From Epilithonimonas sp. (lineage in GTDB: Bacteria; Bacteroidota; Bacteroidia; Flavobacteriales; Weeksellaceae): a stretch of 64,000 bases of DNA. Below are positions 7,897-39,410 of this stretch, in pieces. A model generated the notes under the pieces. That model was given only the letters and a program-made list of their open reading frames with translations. It did no database searches and was not told the origin of the DNA. Location of the stretch: NCBI RefSeq assembly GCF_032054105.1, contig NZ_DAMBTK010000003.1; one strand, 5' to 3'. The translations under genes and the position numbers were made by a program. How positions within the stretch are numbered: position 1 is the stretch's first letter; every line of letters begins with the position of its first letter.

Positions 7897-7970
7897 GATC
7901 CGGTAGTTCAGCTGGTTAGAATGCCGCCCTGTCACGGCGGAGGTCGCGGGTTCGAGTCCCGTCCGGATCG
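7897..7970 (+). tRNA. tRNA-Asp (anticodon GTC)
   Basis: Hand-folded cloverleaf of 74 nt. Acceptor stem GATCCGG/CCGGATC; D arm GTTC-AGCTGGTTA-GAAT; anticodon stem CCGCC/GGCGG with loop CTGTCAC; T arm GCGGG-TTCGAGT-CCCGT; discriminator G. No CCA is encoded. A TATTTTTG -7 box lies at 7848-7855. Confidence 0.9.
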
Positions 7971-7998
7971 CAACTATTACAACAAAGTAATACAAAAT

Positions 7999-11915: not shown

Positions 11916-11919
11916 CAAT

Positions 11920-15114: not shown

Positions 15115-15120
15115 AAAATT

Positions 15121-17900: not shown

Positions 17901-19598
17901 TTATTCAAGTTCCTTTTTCCTCTGCTTAATAAAATCTGTCGGACGGATCCCATTTATTTCCAAAAAGAGATCTGAAAAGTTTTGTCGCGAAGAAATCCCA
18001 CATTCATCTGCCAAACCCTGTACTGAATAGCTCAAAACTTTAGCGTCGTTATACATGAGGTCGGTGACATAGTTGATCCTTAGAGTAGAGATATACTTAT
18101 TGAAATTCACGCCCATCACATCATTGATATATTGGGAGAGATATGTTGTATTAGTTTTAAAATTTTCCGCCAGTTGAGGAAGGGTTATTCCTTTTTCTTT
18201 AAAACTTTTTGAATCTTCAAATTCTTTTAGCTTTTCAGCCAAATCAGTGAAAACATCTTTGCTAATTACGGCTTTACTTTGTTGCGGAATATTTTCGTAA
18301 GAAACTGCTGGTGTAGGTTGGTGAGTTTGTAATCTCTCTTCTAATTCGGAATATTTTTTTCTGATGAGTTTTTCTTTTTGATAAAGCTTCCATGCTATAA
18401 AAATTAATCCAATTATAGCGAGAATTAATAATAATATTGCACCTAAACTCCAATAATTTTGCTTTTCTAATTTACCCTTCGCATCCTCTAAAATTTGAGT
18501 ATCGTAATCTTTATGAATTTTTGCAGAGAGATAAGGGAAGTCCTTGGCTAAAATGCTGTCTGCTTTCAGCAAATTCTTGGTGTAGTGGAGTTCTTGTTTA
18601 TCATTCTTTTTCTCTTTCCAATATTTGATGAGCAGTTCATAATTTTCGCGTAGTTCCGGAACAATAAATTTGTGTTTTTGGAAAATAGAATCAACCTTCT
18701 CAAACTGCTGTATCGCCTGTTCTTGTTTTCCCAATCCTAAATAACTTTTCCCAATATAAAAATCTGCAACTGATGCCCAGGAAAAATCATTGTTTTTTTT
18801 AAGCACTGGTAACGCGCTGGTAAGACTTTGAATTGCATCATCATAATTTTTTTGATGATACTCGAATATCCCTTTGCATTTTGTAAAATAGGCTTGTTCT
18901 AAAGGAAATTCTTTACTTTTATTTGTGAAATTTAGTCCCACTTCTACTAATGAATCCGCCTTTTTGTAATTTCCCAAATTCCTGTAGCAGATGGTGGCTT
19001 GGTGTAAACTGTTGAGGTAGCCTTTGCTATTATTAAAAATGGTGTTAGGATGTAAATCTCCCTTTGTTTTAGGCTCAAAATATTGAATACAATCCTCAAA
19101 ATGCTTCCGTGCTTCAATATAATAACCTAGGTAACTTTTTACCACACCCATGTGATAGATTACTTTGTATTTTTGGTACTCGTCAGTTCCTTTTTTAGAA
19201 TATTCATACGCTTTCACATATTCATCGAGAGCGGGTTCGTAGCGTTTTAGATTGAAGTAATAAATGGTTCCCTTGCCTAAATAAGAGCGACTGATAAGAT
19301 CATTATCATTAGTTTTTAACGAAGCACTGATACAACTGTCAGCAAATTTAAGTTTGTCATTAGGATTTGGCGAGAAATAAAAAGCATCTTCATACCCTTG
19401 TGTTAAAGCTTTATAATTCTTATCGGTTTTCGCTTTATTTATATAGACTTTTACAAATGGCAAGGCGTCTTGATCATTATGTTCATAACTCTCATACTTT
19501 TTTCTTAAATCCTCATAAGTGTTTTGAGCTTTCATTTTGAAGCAAAATGAAAGGAATAAAATAAGAATTGATATAAAATGATGTTTATTGATGAGCAT
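17901..19598 (-). CDS. Membrane-anchored TPR sensor fused to a C-terminal AraC-family HTH domain
   Basis: N-terminal signal/TM segment, TPR-like repeats, an internal TM segment (WSLGAILLLILAIIGLIFIAW), and a C-terminal AraC HTH (TTYLSQYINDVMGVNFNKY...GISSRQNFSDLFLEINGIRPTDF). Confidence 0.8.
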   Translation of the reverse strand: MLINKHHFISILILFLSFCFKMKAQNTYEDLRKKYESYEHNDQDALPFVKVYINKAKTDKNYKALTQGYEDAFYFSPNPNDKLKFADSCISASLKTNDNDLISRSYLGKGTIYYFNLKRYEPALDEYVKAYEYSKKGTDEYQKYKVIYHMGVVKSYLGYYIEARKHFEDCIQYFEPKTKGDLHPNTIFNNSKGYLNSLHQATICYRNLGNYKKADSLVEVGLNFTNKSKEFPLEQAYFTKCKGIFEYHQKNYDDAIQSLTSALPVLKKNNDFSWASVADFYIGKSYLGLGKQEQAIQQFEKVDSIFQKHKFIVPELRENYELLIKYWKEKKNDKQELHYTKNLLKADSILAKDFPYLSAKIHKDYDTQILEDAKGKLEKQNYWSLGAILLLILAIIGLIFIAWKLYQKEKLIRKKYSELEERLQTHQPTPAVSYENIPQQSKAVISKDVFTDLAEKLKEFEDSKSFKEKGITLPQLAENFKTNTTYLSQYINDVMGVNFNKYISTLRINYVTDLMYNDAKVLSYSVQGLADECGISSRQNFSDLFLEINGIRPTDFIKQRKKELE

Positions 19599-19871: not shown

Positions 19872-20087
19872 ATGAAAAAGTTTATCTCATTGGTAGCATT
19901 GGCTACATCATTAATTTCAGCAGTAAGTTGTAGAGAAGCAGAACAGATTACAGATCTTAAAGAAAGCCAGAGTTTTAATTTATCTGCAAAAGTAGCACAA
20001 GATTCTGTAGTGATTAATTCATCAACAAATACACCTGCAGAAAATACACCGAAAGACCCTCCGGTAAAAGATGGTCATGATTGGTAA
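19872..20087 (+). CDS. Small lipoprotein
   Basis: Lipobox ISAVSC; 71 aa. Confidence 0.55.
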   Translation: MKKFISLVALATSLISAVSCREAEQITDLKESQSFNLSAKVAQDSVVINSSTNTPAENTPKDPPVKDGHDW

Positions 20088-20128
20088 TTGCTAAATACCA
20101 AAATATTATTAAAATAAATTTATATACA

Positions 20129-20953
20129 ATGAAAAAGTTCGCATTATTTTTCTTGCTGTTTATCCTAATTGTTAATGCACAGACTAACCGATTTTTTTAT
20201 GAATTGCAATCAAGGAAGGATTCAACACAAGAATACAAGAAAAATTATATGGTTTTAGATGTTAACCCAAAATCAATAAAGTTTTATGATAAGGATCTTT
20301 TGGATTACGATTCCATTAACAAAAGTAAAGAGGGAGTGGCAGAATATAGAACAAATACCAAAACTGACCAGCTAATTATTAGAAAACCAAACAGTTTTAA
20401 AAATGACTGGTATAGAGATTTTAAAGAGTATTTTGTTATTCATACAAATGATGAAATGAAATGGAAACTATATCCTGATTCAAAGAATTATAATGTCTAT
20501 AAACTCCAAAAAGCGACTACAAATTTTGGTGGAAGAAAATGGACAGCTTGGTTTTGCAAAGATATTAACATTTCAGAAGGGCCATATAAATTTAGGGGAT
20601 TGCCAGGATTAATTTTTCTTCTAAATGATTCAGAAAATAATTTCATTTACAAATTAGTTAAAAACACAAAATTGAAAGATACCTATGATACGAAACAATT
20701 TTTGGAAAATCACTATGACCAAAAACCGTTGGTTGTCACTAATGAATTTTATAACAAATATTTAATTGATTTTTATGAGAACCCTACAAGGTTAATGGGT
20801 GAAAATATTAAGAGTGGAGGAAATGCTTCACTTAATGGAAAGCCAATTCAATCAATTGAAGAATTAAATAAAATGAAAAGGACGTTACAAAATGTTATTA
20901 GAGATCGCTATTTATACATTGAAAAAGATAAAGAGCCACATTTCGAGAAGTAA
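20129..20953 (+). CDS. GLPGLI-family protein
   Basis: Signal peptide MKKFALFFLLFILIVNAQ and the eponymous FRGLPGLIF motif. Start moved to the ATG at 20129. Confidence 0.8.
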   Translation: MKKFALFFLLFILIVNAQTNRFFYELQSRKDSTQEYKKNYMVLDVNPKSIKFYDKDLLDYDSINKSKEGVAEYRTNTKTDQLIIRKPNSFKNDWYRDFKEYFVIHTNDEMKWKLYPDSKNYNVYKLQKATTNFGGRKWTAWFCKDINISEGPYKFRGLPGLIFLLNDSENNFIYKLVKNTKLKDTYDTKQFLENHYDQKPLVVTNEFYNKYLIDFYENPTRLMGENIKSGGNASLNGKPIQSIEELNKMKRTLQNVIRDRYLYIEKDKEPHFEK

Positions 20954-21077
20954 TACAAATTTTGAGTTTAACTCATTCAAAATTTAGTTTTAAAAAATAA
21001 GAGGAATTTTCAAAGGCCACGAAAAATCTGTCTTACGTGTAATTCGTTTAATATTCATTAATCAAAAATCATTTACA

Positions 21078-21272
21078 ATGTTAAAAAAAAGATTAAAGAA
21101 AATCGCTAAGAAAAGCGACAACAAGAAAGAGATTGAGATCATAAAAGATGGAAATCTTTCTTCCGTAAAAGGAGGTATGGCAGAAGCACAAGTGTGTAGT
21201 TTACTGTACGACTGCAGTTTCAATTTTTCTGATTGTCCTCATCTACACAGTTGCGGGGCAAATTTTGCTTAA
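21078..21272 (+). CDS. RiPP precursor peptide with a double-glycine leader (GG-Bacteroidales-type) and a four-Cys core
   Basis: Lys-rich leader ending ...LSSVKGG. Predicted core MAEAQVCSLLYDCSFNFSDCPHLHSCGANFA (21177-21269). It sits immediately upstream of the rSAM maturase. Confidence 0.75.
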   Translation: MLKKRLKKIAKKSDNKKEIEIIKDGNLSSVKGGMAEAQVCSLLYDCSFNFSDCPHLHSCGANFA

Positions 21273-21280
21273 ACCAATTG

Positions 21281-21311
21281 CAGGCAAAATTTTCATTTTG
21301 CCTGTTTTTTT
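21281..21311 (+). terminator. Hairpin plus T-run between precursor and maturase (attenuating terminator)
   Basis: CAGGCAAAA-ttttca-TTTTGCCTG followed by ttttttt. Confidence 0.65.
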
Positions 21312-21322
21312 AAATTATTATT

Positions 21323-22678
21323 ATGAAATTATCAAAATACCACTTAACAACAGATTTATTGGATGATTATGATTTTCCAAATAAACAAATTCTTTTCTCT
21401 ACACGCACTGGAACATCATTAATGATTGATTCAGAAATTTATCAAAATTTAAAGACCGATAATTTCAACGCAATCAAAAATGACATGGTTGATCTACTTA
21501 AAAAGAATTTAATAATAGTAGATTCTGAGGAAGATGAGTTCTTAATTGTGACTTCAGAAAATGATAAATCTAGAGAAGAGGTAGATGTATTGTCATTCAC
21601 CATCCAACCTTCTGCAAATTGCCAGTTAGGATGCTATTATTGTGCACAAAATCATTCAAAAGATTATGCATCAGACGATATTATTGAGAAATATGTGAAG
21701 AGAATCTTACATTTTTTAGATTCAGGTAAAACTTATCGTGGACTCAATATTATTTGGTATGGTGGAGAACCTTTAACAGGATTAAGTTCAATCAAAAAAA
21801 CTACCAAAAAGTTACTTGAAATATGTAATGAGAGAGGTCTTCATTATAACGCATCAATGGTAACTAATGGCTTAAGTTTGAAAAAAGACATTTTCCAAGA
21901 TTTAGTGACAAATTATAAAATTCGAGATTTTCAAATAACATTAGATGGCTTAGCAGAATCGCATGATCAACGAAGATATACTAAAAGTGGTGAATCAACC
22001 TTTGATATTATTTTCAAGAATATTATCGACTGTACTAGAACTCAAGCTTATCAAAATAAACAAGGCGGTATTTCGATAAGAATAAATATTGATAAAACTA
22101 ACCATCAGTTTGTTAATCCACTACTGGAATATCTTGTTGAAAAAGAAATCAACAATTATGTTGCTGTAAGCTTTGCCCCTATTGTAGACTGGGGTGGTAA
22201 TGATGCAGGTAAAGATTCATTAACCAATGAACAATTTGCCGAGAAAGAAATCGAGTGGTTACTGTACTGCTTTGATAATAAAATAAAATTATCTAATCTT
22301 CTACCAACAAGAAAATATTATGCATGTATGGTGGAAAGAAATGATTCAGAGGTATTTGATGCTTTTGGCAATATATATACTTGTTGGGAATTTCCGTATA
22401 CAGATACATACGGACAAGATAAACATAAGATAGGGAATCTCAACAATGACTATGATACATATGACGAAAATGCCACATTAAGAAATTGGTCGGATGAAAT
22501 AAAAGCAGGAAAAACATGGTGTAAAACATGTTCACATTTGCCTGTTTGTGCTGGTTCTTGCCCTAAGTCATGGTACGAAGGTAAACCTGCATGCCCCGAA
22601 TTTAAATTTAACTATAAAGAAAAACTAATTTTAGATTACTATATCAGAAAAGAAAAAGAAATTCTTGCTGATGCTTAA
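21323..22678 (+). CDS. Radical SAM / SPASM-domain peptide maturase
   Basis: CxxxCxxC cluster (ANCQLGCYYCAQ), GGEPL, and a C-terminal SPASM Cys cluster (WCKTCSHLPVCAGSCP). Confidence 0.88.
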   Translation: MKLSKYHLTTDLLDDYDFPNKQILFSTRTGTSLMIDSEIYQNLKTDNFNAIKNDMVDLLKKNLIIVDSEEDEFLIVTSENDKSREEVDVLSFTIQPSANCQLGCYYCAQNHSKDYASDDIIEKYVKRILHFLDSGKTYRGLNIIWYGGEPLTGLSSIKKTTKKLLEICNERGLHYNASMVTNGLSLKKDIFQDLVTNYKIRDFQITLDGLAESHDQRRYTKSGESTFDIIFKNIIDCTRTQAYQNKQGGISIRINIDKTNHQFVNPLLEYLVEKEINNYVAVSFAPIVDWGGNDAGKDSLTNEQFAEKEIEWLLYCFDNKIKLSNLLPTRKYYACMVERNDSEVFDAFGNIYTCWEFPYTDTYGQDKHKIGNLNNDYDTYDENATLRNWSDEIKAGKTWCKTCSHLPVCAGSCPKSWYEGKPACPEFKFNYKEKLILDYYIRKEKEILADA

Positions 22679-24875
22679 GTTTTTTTCTCAATATGATTTA
22701 ATGGATTGTGGACCAGCTTGTCTTGCTATGGTTGCATCTTATTATGGCAAAAATTATGGATTGAGATATCTTCGGGAAAGATGCTTCTTAACAAGGGATG
22801 GAGTTTCGCTATTAGGAATAATTGAAGCATCAAAAAAAATAGGATTTAGTGTTGTTCCTGGGAAACTTCAAGTCAATGATATTGATTCAAAGGATCTACC
22901 CTGTATACTACATTGGAATAAAAATCATTTCGTAGTCCTTCACAAAATTTCTAGAAATTTTCTTACAAAAAAACTGACATATAAAATTGCAGATCCAGGA
23001 CATGGCTTTGTTTCCCTAGACAATGAAAAATTTAAAAAATCTTGGCTTTCTGATGGTAAAAAAGGTATTGCACTTTTTTTAGAACCAACAGATGAATTTT
23101 ATAAACAAACTCCACCAACAGAAGAAAAAATATCTGCAAAATATTTGTTAAAATATCTTCGCCCACACCAATCGCAGATGGGCTGGATGCTTTTTCTGCT
23201 TACTTTAGGAACACTCTCGACATTAGTTTTTCCTATTCTTACCCAAAAATTAATAGATGAGGGTGTAAGCAAGAAAAACCTGTCAGTAATTACATTGATT
23301 TTATTGGCTCAGCTCGCATTCTTCTTTGGAAATATTGTAATTAATATTTTTCGGAACTGGATTATGCTTGTCGTTGGTACAAAAATTAATATTCAAATTA
23401 TCTCAGACTTTCTTAAAAAGCTTTTGAAACTTCCCATTAAATTTTTTGATACTAAATTGATGGGTGACTTTAATCAACGCATCCAAGACCATGAAAGGAT
23501 AGAAAGTTTTCTCACTTCACAAAGTTTATTAACGCTCTTTTCAATTATAACTTTTACTGCTTTTTTTGGAGTGCTTTGGTATTACGATTTTAGAATTTTA
23601 GCAGTTTATATTATATTAACCATAATATCAGTTTTATGGTCTTTATACTGGATGAGAAAAAGAAAAATTCTAGATTATTTCAGATTCCAGCAAAGAAGCG
23701 AAAACCAAGAGTCTATTTACGAGATTATCAATGGTGTCTCTGAAATGAAGCTCAACCAATTTGAAGATTTTAAACGTAAAGAATGGGAAAATATCCAGCA
23801 AAAACTTTTTAAAATCAATATTCGCATTCTTAAGTTAGATCAAGTTCAACTTTCAGGATTTGAATTTATAAATCAGCTTAAAAACATTCTCGTAACTTTT
23901 CTCTCGGCTTATTTCGTAATAAAAGGACATATGACTCTAGGAGCACTTCTAAGTGTGTCCTACATTATTGGCCAAATGAATTCTCCAGTGAGCCAACTCA
24001 TCAATTTTTTCCGATCATTACAAGATGCAAAATTGAGTTTAGCAAGGCTAAACGAAGTGCAAAACAACCCTGAAGAAGAGCTGGAAAACCAAGTGCCGTT
24101 ACTTAGCAAAAAATATACAGAACAAAATGGCATAGAAAAAGGAATTTATTTCAAAAACGTTTCATTTCAATATGAAGGACCACAATCTCCGTATGTTCTA
24201 AAAGAGATCAATTTGTTTATTCCGGACGGAAAAATTACTGCTATAGTAGGAGCTAGTGGAAGCGGTAAAACCACTTTAATGAAAATGCTCTTAAAATTCT
24301 ATGAGCCAATAAAGGGTGAAATAAAATTTAATCATCTTAATCTAAGTGAAATTTCACCAACAGATCTGAGAAAAAATTGTGGTGTAGTAATGCAGGACGG
24401 TTTTATTTTTTCTGATACGATCGAGCGAAATATTGCAACAAGTGATGAAAATATTGATTATGAAAAACTAAATAAAGCTTTAGAAACGGCCAATATTAAA
24501 TCTTTTGTAGAAGAGCTTCCATTGGGATTAAAGACTAAAATTGGTGCTTCTGGTAACGGAATTTCCGGTGGACAGAAGCAAAGAATTCTTATTGCTAGAG
24601 CGGTTTATAAAAATCCACACTTCATTTTATTTGACGAAGCTACTTCTGCTTTGGATGCTGAAAATGAAAAAATAATTCACGATAATCTGCAATCTTTTTT
24701 TAGAGGAAAAACAGTAATAATTGTTGCCCACAGACTTTCAACAGTAAAAAACGCAGATCAAATTATTGTGCTTAAGAATGGTGAAATTGTGGATCAAGGA
24801 AATCACCAAGAACTGGTAAGCAAAAAGACGGATTATTTTAATCTTGTTAAAAATCAATTGGAACTAGGAAATTAA
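22671..24875 (+). CDS. Peptidase-C39-domain bacteriocin ABC transporter (leader-cleaving exporter)
   Basis: N-terminal C39 motif QYDLMDCGPACLAMVASYYG, six TM segments, Walker A GASGSGKTT, signature ISGGQKQR and Walker B ILFDEATSALD. The ATG at 22671 overlaps the rSAM stop. Confidence 0.92.
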   Translation: MLKFFSQYDLMDCGPACLAMVASYYGKNYGLRYLRERCFLTRDGVSLLGIIEASKKIGFSVVPGKLQVNDIDSKDLPCILHWNKNHFVVLHKISRNFLTKKLTYKIADPGHGFVSLDNEKFKKSWLSDGKKGIALFLEPTDEFYKQTPPTEEKISAKYLLKYLRPHQSQMGWMLFLLTLGTLSTLVFPILTQKLIDEGVSKKNLSVITLILLAQLAFFFGNIVINIFRNWIMLVVGTKINIQIISDFLKKLLKLPIKFFDTKLMGDFNQRIQDHERIESFLTSQSLLTLFSIITFTAFFGVLWYYDFRILAVYIILTIISVLWSLYWMRKRKILDYFRFQQRSENQESIYEIINGVSEMKLNQFEDFKRKEWENIQQKLFKINIRILKLDQVQLSGFEFINQLKNILVTFLSAYFVIKGHMTLGALLSVSYIIGQMNSPVSQLINFFRSLQDAKLSLARLNEVQNNPEEELENQVPLLSKKYTEQNGIEKGIYFKNVSFQYEGPQSPYVLKEINLFIPDGKITAIVGASGSGKTTLMKMLLKFYEPIKGEIKFNHLNLSEISPTDLRKNCGVVMQDGFIFSDTIERNIATSDENIDYEKLNKALETANIKSFVEELPLGLKTKIGASGNGISGGQKQRILIARAVYKNPHFILFDEATSALDAENEKIIHDNLQSFFRGKTVIIVAHRLSTVKNADQIIVLKNGEIVDQGNHQELVSKKTDYFNLVKNQLELGN

Positions 24876-25204: not shown

Positions 25205-27370
25205 ATGCTGAAAAGAACTGTATTATTTTTCATTTTATTCTTTCCTCTAATTTTTTTTGCTCAACTAAGTAAACAGGACTCTTTAAAAAGAGTCGCAGAA
25301 AAACAAATAGAGGGAATAACCATAAAAGGAAGAAAGCCAACGTTGGCAACCTTACCTGATAGATTTGTTTACAATTTGGAAAACTCTAGTCTAGTAATTG
25401 GCAACAATGCGTGGAATGTTTTGCAACAAACACCACTCCTTATGGTTGATGAAAATAGTGGAATAAGCGTAATGGGTTTTCAAAATGCTTCGGTGTATAT
25501 TAATGGAAGAAAGTCAATTTTAGTTGGCAAAGATTTGTATGGGTACTTGAAAAATATGCCTGCTGATAATTTGGTGAAAATAGATATAATTACAACTCCT
25601 TCATCGAAATACGATGCTAATGATGGTGCGGTAATCAACTTAATTCTTAAAAAATTAGAGAATGATGGTTACAAAGGCAGTCTTTCTTTTACTGATACAC
25701 AAACAAGAAAAAATAGTCAAGATATTACCTCATACCTAAATTATCATAACAATAGATTTAGTCTAAGTTCAAGTTTTGACGTAGGTGTTGATAGAAGAAA
25801 GTCTTATGAATATAACATTAATAAAATATATGATACCTCAAATGAACTTTACATTGATACACAAAGAGAATATAAGGAGTTTTATATCAGTACTAATAAC
25901 TCTTATGAATATGAAATAAATCCCAAAACAACAATTGGGGGCGTTTTAGAACTAAATTATTCGAATCCTCGAACATTATATTTGAGCAAAAATTACTCCG
26001 AAAATTCACAATCGTATTTTACAAATCAGGATGATAATAATAGAAATTTACTGTTTTCCAACAATATTTTTTATCGGTTTCAAAATAATAAATCCAACCA
26101 ACAAAATTTAGAAATAAATTTCGATTGGATTTATAGAAGGAGCAGAGGAGATGGTGTTTACAATTCATTTCAAAATAGTTTAATAAATGCAAATAATTCT
26201 TTTTTAAATGAGGAAAGACGAAATTATTCTATTAAAATTGATTATTCTCAAGCATTAGGAAATACTGGCTATTTTTTAGAAGCAGGCTTGAAAAATAATT
26301 TTTTGAACCAAAGTAGTCCATATTATGTTTATTCATGGGATGGCAGTGAGTTTGTCTCGAACCAGAATCTAACAAATATTTTTAAATATCGAGAGAATAT
26401 TTTGGGAATTTACGCAAATATTAATAAGACTTTTTTCAAAAAGCTCAGTATAAAGGGGGGATTAAGAAGTGAATTTACGGATATTAACGGAGTAGAGAAA
26501 TTAAGTAATAAAGAAAATAATAGAAATTACATTGACTACATGCCAACAATAATCTCCAGTTACAAGATAAATGACAGAAATACAATTTCTCTTGGTTATA
26601 GGAAATCAATTATTCGACCTTATGCAAATGAGCTTAACCCCTTTATTTATTATATAAATGATAATTACCTACGAAAAGGAAACCCTTATTTGGAAGTTTA
26701 TAAACAAGACACTTATAGACTAAATTACACTTTTAACAAGAACTACAACTTAATAATTGCTTATAGAGTTAATAGTGATGTGATGCGTTCCACATTTTAT
26801 TATGAAAATAATCAATTGATTGTACAAACCATTAATTATCAAGGAAATAATTATCAAATAATTTTAGGTCTAAATATCAACAAATCTTTATTTAGTGACC
26901 GATTGGGAGTGAATTTTAACCCGACTTTTACAATTAATAATAATTCTGAAATAAATAGTAAAAACAGTCTTAATATTCCAAATTCAACATTTACCAATTT
27001 TGACTTAAAGCTATCTTATAAAAATATTTTTAATTCGGGAATAAATTCAGAAGCATACTTTTCATTTTACTACAACTACTCTTTCCTCAATTATAAGCTT
27101 GTTGAACCATCAAACAGATTTACATTCAGTTTATCAAAGAATTTTGAAAAGCAGGGAATCAAGATTAGATTAGAAACAATTGATCCTTTTAATTTTTTAA
27201 CATGGAAGACATTGTATTATTCAGGCATAGGAGAGATGTACAAGGATAATAGAAGAGATATAAGAAGTATAACCTTATCTATTTCAAAATCCTTTGGAAA
27301 TACAAAAACTAAAGAGATTAAAAATAGGCAAATAGATAGAGGAAGAACAAATTCTGGTGATAACACTTAA
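25205..27370 (+). CDS. Outer-membrane beta-barrel protein (TonB-dependent-receptor-like)
   Basis: Signal peptide, a plug-like region (IEGITIKGRKP...NAWNVLQQTPLL...ASVYINGRK), then ~600 aa of alternating Y/N/S-rich beta-strand sequence. Confidence 0.75.
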   Translation: MLKRTVLFFILFFPLIFFAQLSKQDSLKRVAEKQIEGITIKGRKPTLATLPDRFVYNLENSSLVIGNNAWNVLQQTPLLMVDENSGISVMGFQNASVYINGRKSILVGKDLYGYLKNMPADNLVKIDIITTPSSKYDANDGAVINLILKKLENDGYKGSLSFTDTQTRKNSQDITSYLNYHNNRFSLSSSFDVGVDRRKSYEYNINKIYDTSNELYIDTQREYKEFYISTNNSYEYEINPKTTIGGVLELNYSNPRTLYLSKNYSENSQSYFTNQDDNNRNLLFSNNIFYRFQNNKSNQQNLEINFDWIYRRSRGDGVYNSFQNSLINANNSFLNEERRNYSIKIDYSQALGNTGYFLEAGLKNNFLNQSSPYYVYSWDGSEFVSNQNLTNIFKYRENILGIYANINKTFFKKLSIKGGLRSEFTDINGVEKLSNKENNRNYIDYMPTIISSYKINDRNTISLGYRKSIIRPYANELNPFIYYINDNYLRKGNPYLEVYKQDTYRLNYTFNKNYNLIIAYRVNSDVMRSTFYYENNQLIVQTINYQGNNYQIILGLNINKSLFSDRLGVNFNPTFTINNNSEINSKNSLNIPNSTFTNFDLKLSYKNIFNSGINSEAYFSFYYNYSFLNYKLVEPSNRFTFSLSKNFEKQGIKIRLETIDPFNFLTWKTLYYSGIGEMYKDNRRDIRSITLSISKSFGNTKTKEIKNRQIDRGRTNSGDNT

Positions 27371-27454
27371 TAGCAATTATATTTCATTAAAATATAAAAA
27401 TGCGGAAACCGAAAAGCATGCAATGAGTAGGTATAACAGCAAAAACTTAAAACA

Positions 27455-27598
27455 ATGAAAAAGTTAAGTTTAGATGCTTTCAAAAAGAAGGCTAAATCTA
27501 CAGAAGTAACTACTTTGCTAACTCAAGTTGTAGGAGGTAAAGGTGTTGCACAAGATTGTCATCCTGGTGATACATCTTGTCCAGCTACTTCTTTGTAG
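27455..27598 (+). CDS. Second GG-leader RiPP precursor (47 aa; not in the supplied ORF track)
   Basis: Hand translation: MKKLSLDAFKKKAKSTEVTTLLTQVVGG|KGVAQDCHPGDTSCPATSL*. The leader style matches the 21078 peptide. The 19-aa core (27539-27595) has two Cys. Confidence 0.65.
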   Translation: MKKLSLDAFKKKAKSTEVTTLLTQVVGGKGVAQDCHPGDTSCPATSL

Positions 27599-27607
27599 GA
27601 CTGATCT

Positions 27608-27640
27608 GAGAGAGAATTTGTTTCTCTCTCTTATTGTTCA
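27608..27640 (+). terminator. Hairpin after the second precursor
   Basis: GAGAGAGAA-tttgt-TTCTCTCTC followed by a T-rich tail. Confidence 0.5.
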
Positions 27641-27768
27641 ACCTTCATTAAAATAGATTTTAAAGGGGCTTAAATGCGATGTTTCATCTCTGTCATTGTG
27701 GAAAGTTTTTATCTCAATAAAACTAAAAACAATTATAAGTCAGTAGTCTATCAATAAATAAATGTAAA

Positions 27769-28947
27769 ATGTTAGAAATTATTAAACCATTATTACAAGA
27801 AGGAAGGTCTCAATGGAATGAGCAAATCAAAATGCTATTGTACAAGCAGAATGAAGAAATATTCGATTATGTAGACTTTGAAAATGAAGAAATATATTGT
27901 AATCCACTGTTAAACCTTTATTTTGGAAGCGAGACTCATCCTAAGAAATTAAAAAATATTTTGTTTTCACATTGGAATGGAGAAAAGGAACTTTATTTTG
28001 ACATCAATGAAGATTTATTATATATTCCTAATCTCGGTTGGTCATATAAAGTAAAAGATGGAGAATTCCCTAAGGCAAATCAAGAATTTAAAAAGCCTAA
28101 ATTCTTAATTAAAGAATGCAAAATTGAACTGTTACAAAATAGATTCCAACTTATAGAAGATTGTTTTGGAGATTATGAGTATGAAATTGAAGAAATTAGC
28201 AATAAGAATATTAGCTATGTTACGAAAGCTTATGAATCAATAAAGAGTAATCTTCCCGAGTATTTTAAACTAATAGAAAGATACTGTCCTAGATGTGTTA
28301 TATTTAATACTTTGCCATCAAATACTAACTCCTTTGCTTATAAAAGAGCTTTGGGAATTTCATTTTACAACGCTTATCAAGATAACTACGACGAAGTTTT
28401 TTTTATAGATGATATAGCGCATCAGACTGGTCATGTTTTGATGTATACAATGTTATTTGATAAAGATGTCTTTTTTACCATCGACGATGAAAATACGTCA
28501 ATTCAAAGTATAGCAACACCTAAAAATGTAGAAAGTAATAGGAGTGTTGAAATTTGGTTTCATGCATTGTACACATATTATGCTAGCTTCATTTGCTTAA
28601 ATGCATTCTTAGAAAAGAGTGACTTTACAAAAATTCAAAGAATTGAAGCGTTAGGTAGAATTTTATTGTATTTACATAGGTGCTACTACGATCTCCGACT
28701 GTTCTATACGCCTATTGACAGTTCTAAAATTTTCACTAAAATTCCGGCAGACTATCAATTCGTAGAAGATGTTTCAAAGAAAATTTTCACAGATATTGGT
28801 AAAAAAATTTTTATCGAAATAAGAAATAAGTGGATCGAAATTTACAATAAATACTATGCTTTGATTGATGACTATACCTTGGATGGTCAAGGTTATAACT
28901 TTGATTTGAAGATTTTTCTAAAAAACAATCCATCATGCTTAAAGTAG
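27769..28947 (+). CDS. Putative peptide-modifying enzyme with an HExxH-like (HQTGH) motif
   Basis: 392 aa, cytoplasmic, with a single DDIAHQTGHVLMY motif. It lies between the precursor and the exporter. Family assignment is tentative. Confidence 0.4.
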   Translation: MLEIIKPLLQEGRSQWNEQIKMLLYKQNEEIFDYVDFENEEIYCNPLLNLYFGSETHPKKLKNILFSHWNGEKELYFDINEDLLYIPNLGWSYKVKDGEFPKANQEFKKPKFLIKECKIELLQNRFQLIEDCFGDYEYEIEEISNKNISYVTKAYESIKSNLPEYFKLIERYCPRCVIFNTLPSNTNSFAYKRALGISFYNAYQDNYDEVFFIDDIAHQTGHVLMYTMLFDKDVFFTIDDENTSIQSIATPKNVESNRSVEIWFHALYTYYASFICLNAFLEKSDFTKIQRIEALGRILLYLHRCYYDLRLFYTPIDSSKIFTKIPADYQFVEDVSKKIFTDIGKKIFIEIRNKWIEIYNKYYALIDDYTLDGQGYNFDLKIFLKNNPSCLK

Positions 28948-29393
28948 CATTTTTGCTTTTTTGTTTTTTAGGCAATATATTCTTTGCTCAGGTAAACGAT
29001 AATTTGGAATTATGTGGAGACAAAAAAGTGTATCCGTATTATTATCTGCAAAATTCTGGAAATTATATTCCTGATTTTTATCAGATAAAAGGTGTTTTTA
29101 ACACTAAGTATTTTAAAGAAGAATATTCACATTTAGAAAATAATACTGGTATACTTCACATTACATTTTGGGTAAACTGCAAAGGGGAAACTGGAAATTA
29201 CTCTATGGAGTCCTTTAATTTTGATTATCAATATTGTGTTTTAAATGATAAAATAAAACAGAGAATTTTAGAATTAGTACAATCATTGAAAATATGGAAA
29301 CCTATCGCTGAAGATCAATTAATCCAAAATTTTCATCAGTATTATATTTTTAAAATAAAGAATGGAGAAATCACCGATATATTACCCAAATAA
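28935..29393 (+). CDS. Small secreted protein of unknown function
   Basis: Signal peptide MLKVAFLLFCFLGNIFFAQ. It overlaps the upstream gene by 13 nt. Confidence 0.5.
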   Translation: MLKVAFLLFCFLGNIFFAQVNDNLELCGDKKVYPYYYLQNSGNYIPDFYQIKGVFNTKYFKEEYSHLENNTGILHITFWVNCKGETGNYSMESFNFDYQYCVLNDKIKQRILELVQSLKIWKPIAEDQLIQNFHQYYIFKIKNGEITDILPK

Positions 29394-29395
29394 GT

Positions 29396-30283
29396 ATGAG
29401 AAAGAAACTTTTACCATTTATTATATCATTCCTTATGATAAATTTATTTTATGCGCAGGATTTATCTCCAAAGGCATTAAACCGCTTACAAGAAGTATCC
29501 AAAAAGAATAATGACACAATAAATATAAAATCTCCGGAAACTATATTTAATATTGGATATTGGTCAAGTTACTTTGGTATGGATGATATTGGAGAAGAAT
29601 TAATGCAATACGGTATTCGCAATGTTAAAAATTTAAAGCCGGAACTAATCAGGCATTCATCGGTACAAAATACAAAAAATGGATATTGGGTTCAAGCCAT
29701 CCAAAAGCTTGAACAATCTTCAACTTTAGATCCTAGTATAAATGCGTATTATGGTTGGGTTTTGCTTTTCTTTTATCATGATTATAGCAAATCATTAGAA
29801 AAACTTGAAAAATATGAGAAGTATATGAAAAATGAGCCAAATCTAATTGCAAATGGTGATAACTTTCATTATTTAAAAGGTATTAACTACATGCAACTTA
29901 ACCAATATGAGAAAGCAATAAATGAATTTGACTGGAGTAAGAGAGAATCATTTGAATTAACAAAAAAAAATGACTTCTTTCCATTTCAATTAGAATTATA
30001 TAAAGGAAGGTGCTTTGAGAAGTTAGGTCAACTTAATAAGGCATTGGATTCTTACGATGAATCAATTAAAATAGCAAAAGTTGCAGACAATTATTTTTAT
30101 AAGGCATTGGTCTTAAAAAGACTAAATCGAGTAAAAGAATACGAAAAAAATATAAAAATATCATTCGACTTGATAAAACAAGGTAAAAAAAATAATGATA
30201 ATTATCAGGTAGTTTTTGATGAAGTATATATCCAGGATATAGAAAAGGAATTAAATGAAATTACCAACAAATATAATAGATAA
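29396..30283 (+). CDS. Secreted TPR-repeat protein
   Basis: Signal peptide and TPR-like repeats (YLKGINYMQLNQYEKAINEF; YKGRCFEKLGQLNKALDSYDESIKI). Confidence 0.65.
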   Translation: MRKKLLPFIISFLMINLFYAQDLSPKALNRLQEVSKKNNDTINIKSPETIFNIGYWSSYFGMDDIGEELMQYGIRNVKNLKPELIRHSSVQNTKNGYWVQAIQKLEQSSTLDPSINAYYGWVLLFFYHDYSKSLEKLEKYEKYMKNEPNLIANGDNFHYLKGINYMQLNQYEKAINEFDWSKRESFELTKKNDFFPFQLELYKGRCFEKLGQLNKALDSYDESIKIAKVADNYFYKALVLKRLNRVKEYEKNIKISFDLIKQGKKNNDNYQVVFDEVYIQDIEKELNEITNKYNR

Positions 30284-32462
30284 GTTTAAACCATTTCCTT
30301 TTTATAAGCAATTGGAAGGAAAAGATTGCGGACCAACATGTCTTAAAATTATTTGTGCATATTACAATAAAGAAGTTTCCATTCAAGAGTTGAGAAACCT
30401 TTCTAAGACAACAAGGGAGGGAAGTAGTCTTTACAATCTTTCCAAAACTGCTGAAGTTTTAGGATTTGATACTTTCGGGACAACGGTAAGTTTTGAGGAC
30501 TTAAAGGAGGCACCACTTCCTTGCGTAGTTTTTTGGAAAAATTATCATTACGTTGTTTTGTATAAAATTGATAAAACTAAAGTGCATATTTCTGATCCCG
30601 CAATGGGGAAAATAAAATATTCACATAATGATTTTATTAAAAATTGGATAAATGATTCGGCTACTGCCGAAAATGATGGAATTGTACTTTTGTTGGAGCC
30701 TAATTCCAATTTTATTCTTGAAAGAAAAGATAATAAAACTAAATCTTATAGTAGATTTTTAAATTATTTAAAACAGCAAAAAAAATTAATTCTATATTTA
30801 ATTATAGCATTGTTGATTGAAAATGTAATAACATTCTTCTTCCCATTTTTTACGAAAAATATTGTTGACAAAGGTATTAGACCTAAAAATATTAGTTTTG
30901 TTTATACTGTGTTATTTGCCCAATTGTCACTATTCCTTGGTCAAATTGTAGTTGAGTCAATTAGGTCTCGAGTTTTAGTTCATTTAAGTAATAGAATTAA
31001 TATTGTATTGGTTGCTGAATTTCTCAAAAAAATGATGAATTTACCTATTTCTTTTTTTGAGGCTAGAATTACTGGAGATTTAATTCAGCGAATGAATGAT
31101 AATTATAGAGTGCAAAATTACCTTACTGGAAGTTCATTAAACACTTTTTTTTCTTTTATCAATTTTATAGTTTTTGGAGGTATTCTACTATATTATAATA
31201 GTTTTGTTTTCGGGGTATTTATTACCGGAGGTATTTTATATGTCGTTTGGTTGCTGATATTTACAAAAAGAAGAAAAGTTTTAGATTATTTAAGGTTTGA
31301 ACAGCAGGCGGAAGAACGTTCTATGACGATGGAAATTATTTCTGGAATGCCCGAGATTAAAATCAATAAAGCGGAAGATCAAAAAACAAAAGATTGGGAA
31401 AAAATACAAGAGAAGTTATATAATATTCAGTTAAAAGTTCAAAAAGTTGAGCAATGGCAAAATGTTGGCTCTAGTTTTTTGAATCATTTAAAAGATATTT
31501 TAATAACATTTATTTCAGCAAGTCTTGTAATAAAGAACAAAATTACTCTTGGAGAAATGTTATCTATTCAGTTTATTGTGGGGCAACTAAATATCCCACT
31601 TTCCCAACTTGTAACATTCATTAGAAGTTCTCAAGACGCAAAAATTAGTTTAGAAAGATTGAATGAAATATATGAGAAAGAAGATGAGGATGTAAGTGTT
31701 ATTAATCGGGGAATAGATTTGGAAGGTAAAGACATTTATCTAGAGGGTGTTTCTTTTTCATATTATGGCGTAGAAAATAATGTTCTTCATAACATTGACA
31801 TATTAATTCCAAAAAATAAAATTACAGCAATAGTTGGAATGAGCGGAAGCGGGAAAACAACGTTGATGAAGTTGCTGATTAAATTTTATAAACCAATAAC
31901 TGGTTCAATATTTCTTGAAAACTTTAATCTTAACGAAATTCACTCGAGTGAGTGGCGAAGAAAAATTGGCGTTGTTATGCAGGATGGTTATATTTTTAGT
32001 GATACCATCGCAAATAACATTACTTTAGGGGATGATAATATAGATTTAGAAAGATTGAGGTACGCAATTTCAACATCTAATTTGACAGATTTTGTTAATA
32101 AGCTACCTTTAAATACAGATACTTTGATAGGTGCTGATGGTAATGGGATTTCGGGTGGACAGAAACAGCGTATATTAATTGCAAGAGCGGTTTATAAAAA
32201 TCCTCACTTTTTGTTTCTAGATGAAGCAACTTCTGCACTTGATGCTGAAAATGAGAAAATCATCCATAATAATCTTCAATCATTTTTTAAGGGAAAAACC
32301 GTCGTAGTAATTGCACATCGACTTTCTACAGTGAAAAATGCGGATAAAATTATTGTTCTCAAAAATGGTAAAATTGTCGAGTCTGGTAGTCATGATGAAT
32401 TGGTAAGTAAAAAAGCTGATTATTTTAATCTCGTTAAAAATCAACTAGAATTAGGTAGTTAA
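30255..32462 (+). CDS. Second peptidase-C39-domain bacteriocin ABC transporter (paralogue of 22671-24875)
   Basis: C39 motif LEGKDCGPTCLKIICAYYN, Walker A GMSGSGKTT and signature ISGGQKQR. The last ~100 aa are nearly identical to the first exporter. Confidence 0.92.
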   Translation: MKLPTNIIDKFKPFPFYKQLEGKDCGPTCLKIICAYYNKEVSIQELRNLSKTTREGSSLYNLSKTAEVLGFDTFGTTVSFEDLKEAPLPCVVFWKNYHYVVLYKIDKTKVHISDPAMGKIKYSHNDFIKNWINDSATAENDGIVLLLEPNSNFILERKDNKTKSYSRFLNYLKQQKKLILYLIIALLIENVITFFFPFFTKNIVDKGIRPKNISFVYTVLFAQLSLFLGQIVVESIRSRVLVHLSNRINIVLVAEFLKKMMNLPISFFEARITGDLIQRMNDNYRVQNYLTGSSLNTFFSFINFIVFGGILLYYNSFVFGVFITGGILYVVWLLIFTKRRKVLDYLRFEQQAEERSMTMEIISGMPEIKINKAEDQKTKDWEKIQEKLYNIQLKVQKVEQWQNVGSSFLNHLKDILITFISASLVIKNKITLGEMLSIQFIVGQLNIPLSQLVTFIRSSQDAKISLERLNEIYEKEDEDVSVINRGIDLEGKDIYLEGVSFSYYGVENNVLHNIDILIPKNKITAIVGMSGSGKTTLMKLLIKFYKPITGSIFLENFNLNEIHSSEWRRKIGVVMQDGYIFSDTIANNITLGDDNIDLERLRYAISTSNLTDFVNKLPLNTDTLIGADGNGISGGQKQRILIARAVYKNPHFLFLDEATSALDAENEKIIHNNLQSFFKGKTVVVIAHRLSTVKNADKIIVLKNGKIVESGSHDELVSKKADYFNLVKNQLELGS

Positions 32463-32666: not shown

Positions 32667-32724
32667 AAACTTCTTGGAAATTAAGACAAATCAACAATAC
32701 TTTTGCTTTGCTTATCGAAAACCA

Positions 32725-33567
32725 ATGCAGGAATATTTTGAAAATATAATCGAAACACTCCAGGAAAACATCCGGGAATTATCCATGGAGATTGATAATC
32801 CCATTGTATTTTCCGAGTTGGCCGTCAAATTGAGTTTGGATACGCTTTCTGAGCTTAAAAAATATGTTCTTGAACATTCGTTTCAAAATATTGAAGATGA
32901 GATTTGGTTTTTCAAAAATATTAAACCAAAAATTCTTTCAAAATTAATTTATCATAATTCAGTTTTCAGAACTGAAACCAAAAAGCCAAATGGTGGTGAG
33001 AAAATTATTAGAAAATATTATGAAGCACAATTGGCCAAGCTCAAAAATTATTTTGAGAATAATTTAGAGTTTTATAAATATTACAGAACCGGAAATACCT
33101 TTCTGGATGATCATTATTTCGTGAGAGGCAAATATGATATAAAGCTGAGTTTGGATACTTATTTCTTTGAATCTGACCACTCTTTCACAACTTCTCACGA
33201 TTATAAAGTGGCCAAAATCATTGCAAATGATCAACTGCAGGTTTATCTTGAAAATGAACTCACCAATCTTTATAAAACACACAGCAGAGAGGAAAAAGAG
33301 TTGCTTTTGTCAGGTTTAAAATGGACGGCTCCCAAAGTTTCCCTAATTGAATTGCTTTATGCTCTGCATGCTGATGGAGTTTTTAACAATGGCGCTGTGG
33401 AACTAAAAGAAATTGCAGAAAGTTTTGAAAAAATATTCAATATCGATTTAGGACAGTTTCATAGAGTTTTTCTGGAAATAAGAATACGCAAATCGTCCAA
33501 AACAAAATTCCTTGATAATTTGAAGGAAACCCTTATAAAGAGAATGGATGATGCGGATGAAAATTAA
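32725..33567 (+). CDS. rteC: RteC-family regulator (conjugative-transposon excision regulation)
   Basis: LKWTAPKVSLIELLYALHADGVFNNGAVELKEIAESFEKIFNIDLGQFHRVFLEIRIRK is typical of RteC. Start moved from the TTG at 32674 to the ATG at 32725. Confidence 0.75.
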   Translation: MQEYFENIIETLQENIRELSMEIDNPIVFSELAVKLSLDTLSELKKYVLEHSFQNIEDEIWFFKNIKPKILSKLIYHNSVFRTETKKPNGGEKIIRKYYEAQLAKLKNYFENNLEFYKYYRTGNTFLDDHYFVRGKYDIKLSLDTYFFESDHSFTTSHDYKVAKIIANDQLQVYLENELTNLYKTHSREEKELLLSGLKWTAPKVSLIELLYALHADGVFNNGAVELKEIAESFEKIFNIDLGQFHRVFLEIRIRKSSKTKFLDNLKETLIKRMDDADEN

Positions 33568-37751: not shown

Positions 37752-39410
37752 ATGGCAAGATATTCTCGTTCAATTAAGATAGCTTTTGACAAATTATCAG
37801 GAGAGATACTAGACGCTGATGAAATATTTGACATTACAAAAGATGCTTTCCAAATTAGAAAAAAATATCATGAAAAAAATTTGGAACTTTCTTGTTGCGA
37901 GTGCGAGCAAGATTTAATGGTTTCAGGAAGTAAATATGATAGATTGCATTTCAAACATAAACCAGGTCATGAATTTTGTATTTTGGCTAACGGTCAGTTC
38001 AGTCCATTAGAACAAGAAAAATTTACTGCAATCTTAAAAGCCAAAGAAAGTAAACGCCACAAAGATTTAAAGAAAAAAATCGGCAAGTTACTAGAGAATG
38101 TTAAAGAAGTAGATAAAAGTTCAATCCAAATTGATAACAAATTTATTATAAAAGGTAATGAAAGAAGAAAACCAGATGTTTATTGCAAGTTTCAAGATAA
38201 AGAAATTGTATTTGAAATCCAGCTTTCAGATTTATCTCTTGGTTACATATTAAGTAGATATGATTTTTACAAAAAAAATGGGATTTATCTAATATGGATA
38301 CTTGACAATTTTGATTTACACAATCAAGGAACACTTGAAAGAGATATAAAATATTTAACAAAATACGAGAATTTCTTTAAACTTGATGAGAGTTCTGAAA
38401 CATTTAGATTATTGTGTGATTATAAATATCCTTTTCTAACAGATAAAAATAAACTTTTGACAAAATGGTTGAAAAAATCTATTTCCTTAAATGAATTAAA
38501 CTTTGACAGTGAAGTCTTTCAGACTTTTTACTACAATTTTGGTGATCATAAATTGCGAACGGAAAATCTCCAGAAACAGAGAATTTTTGAGTTAGAAGAA
38601 TCTGAAAGAAAAAGAAAAGAAATTGAAAGACTAGAAAAAGCGGAACAAAAAGCAAAAGATTTAGTAATAAATATTGCTGACTTTAGAAGACAAAAATTGC
38701 ATAACTTTTCACTAATTACAAACAAGATTGAAAAATTAAACAATTTAGAATTAATCCTCTTTAATAAAATCTTAAATTTAAAAGGAAGAAATAAACCTCC
38801 TTTGCTAACATGGATTGATAAAGCAAGTCAAGATGATGTTGGGTTTTTAAATTTTATTATTACCACCAAAGAGATTGAAATTGACATTATCAAATCTCAT
38901 AATGGTAGAACAGCATTTCAAGCATTATTTGAAAATTCTAATATTTCTAAATTTGTTATTGCTCAAGCATTATTTCAAGTAGGCTACAAATTAACAGAAA
39001 ATGATAAGACCAAACTTATACAACTTAAAGAGAAAGAAGAAATAGAAGAACTTGATTTCCATTGTTATTTTTTTTGCGACAGATTGAAAAACAGAACGCT
39101 TGCAAAAAATATCTTTGATTTTATAAAATTGCTTCTAATTCTTGAATCAGCTCGAAATAATGACTTGATATACTTTAAATACAACGGAAATAAATGGATA
39201 TCTTTTGCAAACAATGCAATCCAATATTATAGTGAGTATTGGGAATACATAGAACTCACTTTTAAACACTTTGGAACATGGGATGAATTAATTAAAATTG
39301 ACACAAACGGAACTTTTCAAAAAAAAGTCGAACAATTTTATTCGAAAATGCCAATCCAAAAATATGATTTTGATAGAATATTTAAGGATTTATTTCCAGA
39401 AATTGAATAA
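37752..39410 (+). CDS. CoiA-like nuclease-fold protein with a ~330-aa uncharacterised C-terminal extension
   Basis: Zn-ribbon-like CCECEQ...LHFKHKPGHEFC, then ESKRHKDLKKKI, then a PD-(D/E)xK-like RKPDVYCKF...EIVFEIQLSDLS...GIYLIWILD. A coiled-coil ERKRKEIERLEKAEQKAKD follows. Confidence 0.7.
   Translation: MARYSRSIKIAFDKLSGEILDADEIFDITKDAFQIRKKYHEKNLELSCCECEQDLMVSGSKYDRLHFKHKPGHEFCILANGQFSPLEQEKFTAILKAKESKRHKDLKKKIGKLLENVKEVDKSSIQIDNKFIIKGNERRKPDVYCKFQDKEIVFEIQLSDLSLGYILSRYDFYKKNGIYLIWILDNFDLHNQGTLERDIKYLTKYENFFKLDESSETFRLLCDYKYPFLTDKNKLLTKWLKKSISLNELNFDSEVFQTFYYNFGDHKLRTENLQKQRIFELEESERKRKEIERLEKAEQKAKDLVINIADFRRQKLHNFSLITNKIEKLNNLELILFNKILNLKGRNKPPLLTWIDKASQDDVGFLNFIITTKEIEIDIIKSHNGRTAFQALFENSNISKFVIAQALFQVGYKLTENDKTKLIQLKEKEEIEELDFHCYFFCDRLKNRTLAKNIFDFIKLLLILESARNNDLIYFKYNGNKWISFANNAIQYYSEYWEYIELTFKHFGTWDELIKIDTNGTFQKKVEQFYSKMPIQKYDFDRIFKDLFPEIE

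Follow-up and report, generated by a model that had tools for sequence, protein, structure and literature searches.

In a 64,000-nt stretch of DNA from Epilithonimonas sp. (contig NZ_DAMBTK010000003.1 of assembly GCF_032054105.1; hereafter the window), the gene cluster at positions 27455-32462 encodes a short peptide with a double-glycine (GG) leader, a 392-aa cytoplasmic protein bearing an HQxxH motif, and a peptidase-containing exporter. Comparison with related loci points, at moderate confidence, to a new family of RiPPs (peptides made on the ribosome and modified after translation), in which a Cys-His dyad of the core peptide would be modified by a divergent oxygenase of the alpha-ketoglutarate-dependent HExxH (aKG-HExxH) fold, and the product would then be cleaved and exported. 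This reading is built on the conservation of the individual parts, the two-way linkage of precursor and enzyme genes, the invariance of Cys-His among the cores, and the fold and profile homology of the 392-aa protein to known peptide oxygenases.

The precursor gene (27455..27598, plus strand) encodes 47 residues, namely a 28-aa double-glycine leader, MKKLSLDAFKKKAKSTEVTTLLTQVVGG, and a 19-aa core with Cys35-His36, KGVAQDCHPGDTSCPATSL. A first-pass annotation of the window, made from its letters alone, had proposed this small open reading frame (ORF), and the translated letters match. In an alignment of the window with L001 and L002 (the labels L001-L060 denote relatives' regions used for comparison), the ORF shows in-frame indels and third-position changes, as expected of a real gene. 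The hairpin that the same annotation had placed after it is equally real: a stem-loop at 27608..27630 on the plus strand (GAGAGAGAA-TTTGT-TTCTCTCTC) forms a 9-bp stem followed by a T-rich stretch, with a folding free energy of -14.4 kcal/mol in a 40-nt window and a z-score of -4.2 against shuffled sequences. It is preserved in the three-way alignment despite compensated changes on both arms, and conservation ends just past it. A stable hairpin (z <= -2; median z -4.5) lies 3' of 48 of 66 precursor genes in the related loci. Such a terminator- or attenuator-like element is the expected layout for setting a high precursor-to-enzyme ratio, a function that the hairpin would presumably serve here.

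A scan of one genome per species yielded 52 loci encoding a relative of the 392-aa protein, and in 46 of these a related GG-leader peptide with Cys-His is encoded on the same strand, usually less than about 1.5 kb 5' of the enzyme gene; several loci (L022, L028, L034) hold tandem precursors in two to six copies. The reverse direction gives the same picture, as all six precursor-anchored genomes, which contribute seven places, have an HQxxH homologue 0.1-1.3 kb downstream. As a control for chance, a six-frame scan of about 0.8 Mb for GG-x(1-9)-CH returned one match that lacked the leader. The enzyme-precursor pairing is conserved both ways; the co-occurrence check suggested in the first-pass annotation thus comes out in favour of its proposal of a RiPP-type locus with an unannotated GG-leader precursor.

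The leaders follow the consensus K-L-S-L-[DE]-A-[LF]-K-x-[KR]-A-E-x-[VI]-x-S-x-E-[LV]-L-x-x-I-x-G-G. Among the 67 peptides of the loci, GG is invariant, position -4 is I or V in every case, and 66 have L or M at position -7. The cores, 67 distinct ones of 9 to 63 residues, are hypervariable, some of them amphipathic and cationic, some strand-like and some short and Cys-rich. Cys-His is present in all of them and constitutes their sole invariant residues, separated from GG by exactly four residues in 49 of the 67 peptides and by five to nine in the others. This dyad, a feature absent from the first-pass annotation, displaces the modification sites considered there. The Asp and Pro candidates are not shared across the family: Cys may be preceded by D, S, G, E or A (Asp in 32 of 67), and for this variability Asp beta-hydroxylation was rejected as the family reaction. 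The two-Cys pair, proposed as a disulfide, is likewise no family trait, given that a second Cys occurs in only 22 of the 67 cores. A motif CHPG[DE] is conserved within the window's own clade.

When a profile of the precursors was searched against a protein database, 314 further clusters were found at E <= 10, named 'hypothetical protein' by their sources. Among the best 120 of these, Cys-His is present in all 120 and stands four residues after GG in 118, figures that are biased towards the dyad because the search profile itself included it; in these peptides S, A, D or G stands in front of Cys. NCBIfam models, run against the window precursor and nine other peptides, of which eight are relatives, gave nothing beyond noise at E <= 10.

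Both a double-glycine leader and a C39 ABC exporter are present, and in these respects, as in the hydrophobic residues at -4 and -7, the system resembles double-glycine bacteriocin systems of the TIGR01193 type; its loci usually have an HlyD protein, and in places a TolC-like partner, alongside the exporter. Unmodified class II systems need neither a conserved enzyme-like protein in the cytoplasm nor an invariant dyad in the core, both of which the present family has; the secreted TPR protein and the 152-aa protein are additional conserved components.

The putative maturase (27769..28947, plus strand) is a 392-aa protein without a signal sequence. It has no match in Pfam or NCBIfam and no sequence match in PDB, and its model has none in a viral fold library. 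A 90%-clustered database contains 279 homologues, and a profile search of a 50%-clustered library returned 725 clusters at E <= 1e-3, 593 of them at E <= 1e-10. The named homologues are all Bacteroidota (Chryseobacterium, Flavobacterium, Aquimarina, Maribacter, Pedobacter, Paludibacter). In an alignment of 32 members (alignment A1), residues E209, D214, D215, A217, H218, Q219, G221, H222 and R258 are invariant, and H265 nearly so; NSF187-189, H265-A-L-Y-T-Y-Y, E293, R297 and Q374-x-Y-N-F are also invariant or almost invariant. The motif DDIAHQTGH, which includes H218-Q219-T-G-H222, had been described in the first-pass annotation as the only motif of the protein and its Gln for Glu as a substitution, and both statements need revision. 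Conserved blocks extend well beyond it, and nearly all of 264 family proteins have HQxxH, with Glu retained by only P0169 and P0256, so that the Gln is a property of the family and not a local change in the window protein.

In several loci the intact enzyme gene is accompanied by a degenerate paralogue (L027 9485-10624, L030 9501-10640, L041 9493-10656, L043 9895-11028, L045 9432-10577 and L037 2634-3770). The paralogues have lost the His-x3-His motif, reading for example LGHYTGK, IGFFTGK or VIFTSSS in its place, and loss beside an intact copy indicates that selection maintains the motif residues where the copy is intact. In L027, L030, L041, L045 and L037, precursors with CH-x3-CH are located between the intact and the degenerate gene, which ties the protein family to the Cys-His dyad once more; in L043 no precursor was detected. 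The degenerate paralogue may be a pseudo-enzyme partner.

Because the sequence searches in Pfam, NCBIfam and PDB were empty, the kinship of the 392-aa protein is visible only through its fold and through profile-profile comparison. An AlphaFold2 model built on the family alignment reached a predicted local distance difference test score (pLDDT) of 87.9 and a predicted template modelling (pTM) score of 0.90. Compared with PDB by Foldseek, the model found as its top match the aKG-HExxH domain of ChlH (8S5F chains, E 9e-9 to 4e-8, template modelling (TM) score 0.53-0.65, probability 1.00), and the window protein is thus predicted to adopt the ChlH-domain fold. The 8S5F entry is the HExxH domain of ChlB/ChlH, described as 'a novel alpha-ketoglutarate dependent oxygenase'. 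The second match was SjiH (22ob, E 1e-5), of which no account was found in the searched literature, and all remaining matches had E > 0.1.

For the profile-profile comparison, the PflC sequence was taken from the supplement of PMC12636437 and its homologues were collected as alignment A2; their source name is 'aKG-HExxH-type peptide beta-hydroxylase'. Aligned by hhalign, A1 and A2 gave a probability of 79% and an E-value of 1.6e-5 over 218 columns. In the resulting register, H218/Q219/H222 fall on H250/E251/H254, the acidic pair D214-D215 on E245-E246, and R258 to H265 (NRSVEIWFHALY) on KRDLYGYFHAFY, an R-x6-H element made of the Arg and H293 of RDLYGYFHAF. The PflC-ChlH alignment places the same R-x6-H in ChlH (LRPPSGLLHAIF), so that a distal R-x6-H and an acidic pair before the first His are both found in the window family. 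By this alignment the metal site (H218, H222, H265) and the conserved Arg R258 are probably retained, and these residues would bind the metal and 2-oxoglutarate. The association with Fe/2-oxoglutarate HExxH oxygenases, raised in the first-pass annotation, is accordingly supported by the 8S5F fold match, the hhalign result and weak TIGR04267 matches in five of 32 relatives. On model and alignment, the 392-aa protein is placed in the same fold superfamily as the aKG-HExxH oxygenases, in a separate clade that departs from them at the Glu and at the cutoff of the family model.

The aKG-HExxH enzymes (TIGR04267 / IPR026337: ChlH of ChlB, 8S5F; BpmH; PflC/PosC; PesO) are established RiPP tailoring enzymes (PMC12636437, PMC13060819). 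The residues that known members hydroxylate are His, Asp, Gln, Asn, Pro and Phe (PMC12636437, PMC13060819); PflC in addition performs an oxidative cleavage of the backbone and shows metal-dependent hydrolysis as a side activity (PMC12636437). The window family resembles them in predicted fold and in the aligned H-x-x-x-H, preceding acidic pair and distal R-x6-H; in both cases a cytoplasmic protein of some 380-400 aa stands alone, its gene adjoining those of a RiPP precursor and a transporter (PMC12636437, PMC13060819). It differs in its Bacteroidota hosts, its double-glycine leader and its C39 ABC exporter, and in its substrate signature, a Cys-His dyad, whereas the known substrates are modified at residues that do not include Cys.

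Several observations weigh against an oxygenase of this kind acting on the dyad. Support at the level of sequence is modest: TIGR04267 had no match to the window protein at E <= 10, and the matches in the five relatives reached at best E 4e-4, under the 40-bit cutoff, while the PflC-like P0265, a positive control, scored 119.7 bits. The Glu of HExxH, invariant in the PflC family, is Gln in the window family, so that cofactor use or catalysis may differ or be lost. A P-W motif upstream of the Arg, common to PflC, ChlH and SjiH, is absent from the HQxxH family. To these should be added the bias of the precursor profile described above, and the consideration that Cys-His could instead serve the mature peptide, for instance in metal binding, or recognition by another protein of the cluster.

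Under the oxygenase reading, the 47-aa precursor would be made with its conserved double-glycine leader, on which the cytoplasmic HQxxH protein would dock, presenting core residues +5 and +6 to the metal centre of the enzyme for oxidative modification of the Cys-His dyad. The C39 ABC transporter would then cut after GG and export the product, and the secreted TPR protein, the 152-aa protein and the outer-membrane barrel would work in the envelope, in export, maturation or immunity; a TPR/AraC regulator anchored in the membrane is a possible sensor of the exported product. The leader and the dyad are the only features common to all substrates, and the HQxxH protein is the only cytoplasmic protein common to all loci; an enzyme acting on the dyad is therefore the simplest account. 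We infer the dependence on metal and 2-oxoglutarate, the leader-guided positioning and the dyad as the reaction site from these patterns.

As to the reaction, beta-hydroxylation of His36 is the most conservative guess, because ChlH hydroxylates His (PMC12636437). Sulfur chemistry on Cys35, either a Cys-His C-S link or S-oxidation, appears about equally likely. The former has the drawback of leaving the invariant Cys unexplained, whereas the latter would explain both residues and has no precedent in this fold. It is a tentative suggestion, and one we hold with distinctly less confidence, that the HQxxH clade has diverged to a reaction on Cys-His that is new for ribosomal peptides, such as an Fe/O2-dependent intrapeptide C-S bond that links the sulfur of Cys to the imidazole of His, or a Cys-derived heterocycle next to His. 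The C-S version would amount to a peptide-embedded thiohistidine, akin to the chemistry of ergothioneine and ovothiol.

EgtB, OvoA and cysteine dioxygenase are three-His iron enzymes that join or oxidise sulfur, and EgtB and OvoA join a thiol and an imidazole. The putative three-His site of the window protein (H218, H222, H265) and the thiol beside an imidazole in its substrate would be alike in this respect; no kinship of sequence or fold was found between them, and the likeness is one of mechanistic analogy only. CoiH, a sulfoxide-forming enzyme that was also considered, is unrelated.

Three other explanations were weighed. The protein might have no catalytic role, being instead a chaperone that binds the leader, a pseudo-enzyme partner or an immunity factor, and the peptide an unmodified class II-type bacteriocin or signal in which Cys-His acts in the mature product, for example through metal binding or a disulfide. 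A change of Glu to Gln is a classic inactivating change in zincins, the retention of degenerate paralogues means that non-catalytic roles occur in the family, many cores resemble amphipathic bacteriocins, and the Cys-His repeat of the BURP domain forms copper sites in which the His residues bind copper and the Cys form a disulfide (PMC12164859). Yet the putative ligands and the Arg are invariant or nearly so in intact copies and lost only in paralogues that stand beside one, CPBP/Rce1-like proteins, a more usual type of immunity protein, occur separately in 12 loci, and a spacing from the leader that is fixed at four residues points to positioning in an active site. The relatives that share the fold are moreover oxygenases and not hydrolases, so the loss of a Glu base need not inactivate the HQxxH protein; a non-catalytic role is on balance unlikely, although it carries some weight.

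An ordinary aKG-HExxH-type hydroxylase acting off the dyad, at Asp34, Pro37 or Asp39, with Cys-His needed for recognition or by the mature peptide, would agree with the hydroxylation of Asp and Pro by known members (PMC12636437, PMC13060819), with the Asp that precedes Cys in 32 of the 67 locus peptides and with the CHPG[DE] of the window's clade. Across the family, however, the pre-Cys residue varies (S, A, D, G, E), the positions after His are hypervariable and neither an Asp nor a Pro is conserved, which makes such a hydroxylation unlikely as the family function; a single conserved active site with hypervariable targets is also less economical than a reaction on invariant residues, and we regard this explanation as quite improbable. 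A zincin-like peptidase that trims the precursor, for instance by taking off the four residues that separate Cys from GG, is the most remote of the alternatives. It could appeal to a distant zincin-like fold, botulinum and anthrax toxin domains being present far down the Foldseek list, and to the metal-dependent hydrolytic side activity of PflC (PMC12636437), but the zincin matches have E > 0.1 and TM scores of about 0.2. The catalytic general-base Glu of zincins is Gln in essentially the whole family and a dedicated C39 peptidase domain is already present, which together make a peptidase role highly unlikely. The oxidative modification of Cys-His by the HQxxH protein is thus the reading that we prefer.

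Two groups of family members merit separate description. In L054 (9906-11228) and L058 (9591-10877) the enzyme has about 25% identity, with the motif EELIHQG[SA]H, and an Amidohydro_1 gene lies between the enzyme and the ABC exporter. In L060 (6001-12993) a Glu-retaining member (HEGAH) is paired with a GG-x4-CH precursor, MKNTEKTKRLSLDDFKKSMENESKELESLLGG followed by VLGDCHCPNG..., and the cluster further contains an OEP gene, a gene for an Asp-protease/PDZ protein and genes for two methyltransferases, of which one falls in the carnosine N-methyltransferase (CARME) family. The CARME protein is a weak hint that the His side chain is a target in that locus. The idea that Gln is an adaptation to the thiolate of a Cys-containing substrate was weakened by the L060 pairing and has been rejected.

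Downstream of the enzyme, the remaining genes are those listed in the first-pass annotation. A 152-aa secreted protein or lipoprotein with an N-terminal signal-like segment (28935..29393) is followed by a 295-aa secreted TPR protein, also with a signal-like segment and with a Pfam TPR_2 match (29396..30283), and by a 735-aa C39-peptidase ABC exporter composed of Peptidase_C39, ABC_membrane and ABC_tran domains (30255..32462; PF03412 E 2.6e-36, PF00664, PF00005; TIGR01193 E 4e-125), all on the plus strand. The 152-aa protein has invariant C27, C82 and W121, and is found beside the enzyme in 16 of 52 loci and in five of the seven precursor-anchored places. It has no match in Pfam, NCBIfam or PDB, a profile of 13 homologues was equally empty against PDB and Pfam, and its single-sequence AlphaFold2 model reached a pLDDT of only 38; an impression of a TonB-C-like domain found no support.

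All-against-all clustering of the ORFs in the 52 loci, with Pfam run on representatives, revealed a recurrent order: AraC/TPR regulator, one or more precursors, CPBP/Rce1-like membrane protein (a usual bacteriocin immunity type), HQxxH enzyme, 152-aa protein, TPR protein, C39 ABC exporter and HlyD. Of the gene calls, 36 are of the TPR protein, nearly always placed after the enzyme and before the exporter, and 43 are of the exporter, which lies 0.1-3 kb 3' of the enzyme in about 40 of the 52 loci. HlyD-type adaptors number 29 gene calls, joined by a TolC-like OEP in L055 and L060. Homologues of the AraC-HTH/TPR transmembrane regulator adjoin the enzyme locus in 10 of the 52.

The window's clade (L001-L004) is without HlyD and has an outer-membrane beta-barrel protein of the OMP_b-brl_3 type directly 5' of the precursor, with 40-75% identity; the window copy occupies 25205..27370 on the plus strand (PF14905, E 4e-52), and homologues also occur in L043 and L045. 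A further candidate partner, encoded on the minus strand at 17901..19598, has a signal-like N-terminus, TPR repeats, one transmembrane segment and a C-terminal AraC-type helix-turn-helix (Pfam TPR_12, HTH_18). It is 54% identical to its L001 orthologue, which sits about 0.5 kb from the OMP gene, and from this synteny we take it as a candidate regulator of the HQxxH cluster. The extent given in the first-pass annotation is therefore too small, as both the barrel and the regulator are syntenic in the closest relatives: the unit would run regulator-OMP-precursor-enzyme-152aa-TPR-ABC, with a radical S-adenosylmethionine (rSAM) locus nested inside it at about 19.9-24.9 kb.

This nested cassette (19872-24875) comprises a 71-aa lipoprotein-like ORF, a GLPGLI protein, a 64-aa GG precursor that is its own and different from the one studied here (21078-21272), an rSAM/SPASM maturase (21323-22678) and its own C39 ABC exporter. 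Neither of the syntenic loci L001 and L002 has the rSAM gene; in both, the regulator and OMP genes are only about 0.5 kb apart, and the cassette looks like an insertion into the HQxxH locus. The 47-aa precursor itself does not belong to the radical-SAM-modified GG peptides, such as those of the TIGR04149 type.

Between the barrel gene and the precursor, at 27400..27437 on the plus strand and 18-55 nt 5' of the precursor start, lies a conserved non-coding element (ATGCGGAAACCGAAAAGCAT GCAATGAGTAGGTATAAC). It forms a near-invariant block in the alignment of the window with L001 and L002, and the intergenic DNA around it is not conserved. Its first 20 bases open with ATGC and close with GCAT as a palindromic pair, and the element may be an operator or a promoter element.

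On a larger scale, the window contains a tRNA-Asp gene (7897-7971) and, after it, a tyrosine integrase that carries an Arm-DNA-binding domain (8222-9463), an RteC gene (32674-33567), a DUF6035/CoiA-like protein (37752-39410), a 1878-aa protein combining Toprim, Eco57I-methylase and SNF2-helicase domains (40504-46140), RadC (46857-49628) and a TraG/TrwB-type coupling protein (51198-53189). From the tRNA gene, the integrase, RteC, the coupling protein, the Toprim-methylase-helicase protein and RadC, it follows that both RiPP loci are probably carried by a CTnDOT-like integrative conjugative element that entered at tRNA-Asp and whose far end is outside the window. Between the integrase and the RiPP loci, the putative element also contains a region (10572-16470) with a redoxin-domain protein and a SusC/SusD-like pair, namely a TonB-dependent receptor (11887-15114) and a SusD-like protein (15121-16470).

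The aKG-HExxH enzymes have been recognised only recently and are still a small set of RiPP tailoring enzymes whose reactions are not yet predictable (PMC13060819). The fold, and the general logic of a tailoring oxygenase encoded beside a RiPP precursor, were known already; the clade, its motif and its substrate signature are new, and probably so is its reaction. A search of the literature on HQxxH proteins, HExxH enzymes in RiPP pathways and GG-leader RiPPs of Bacteroidota found no description of the clade or of the Cys-His precursors, and the impression of the first-pass annotation that the pairing is undescribed agrees with this and with NCBIfam.

The present analysis adds a large clade, hundreds of sequence clusters in size and spread across Bacteroidota, which escapes current family models and is marked by a distinct signature motif and a sharp substrate signature, GG-x4-Cys-His. 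This signature defines a directly testable enzyme-substrate pair and, at the same time, a simple mining rule for hundreds of peptides that gene callers often skip. Should the reaction involve Cys, it would represent a new post-translational modification, and a novel reaction on Cys-His would place a common N-terminal warhead or metal-binding unit on the hypervariable peptides of Bacteroidota. The family occurs in the fish pathogen Tenacibaculum maritimum, in environmental and host-associated Flavobacteriia, and in Sphingobacteriia. Given these hosts and the probable location on a conjugative element, its products may matter for competition or signalling.

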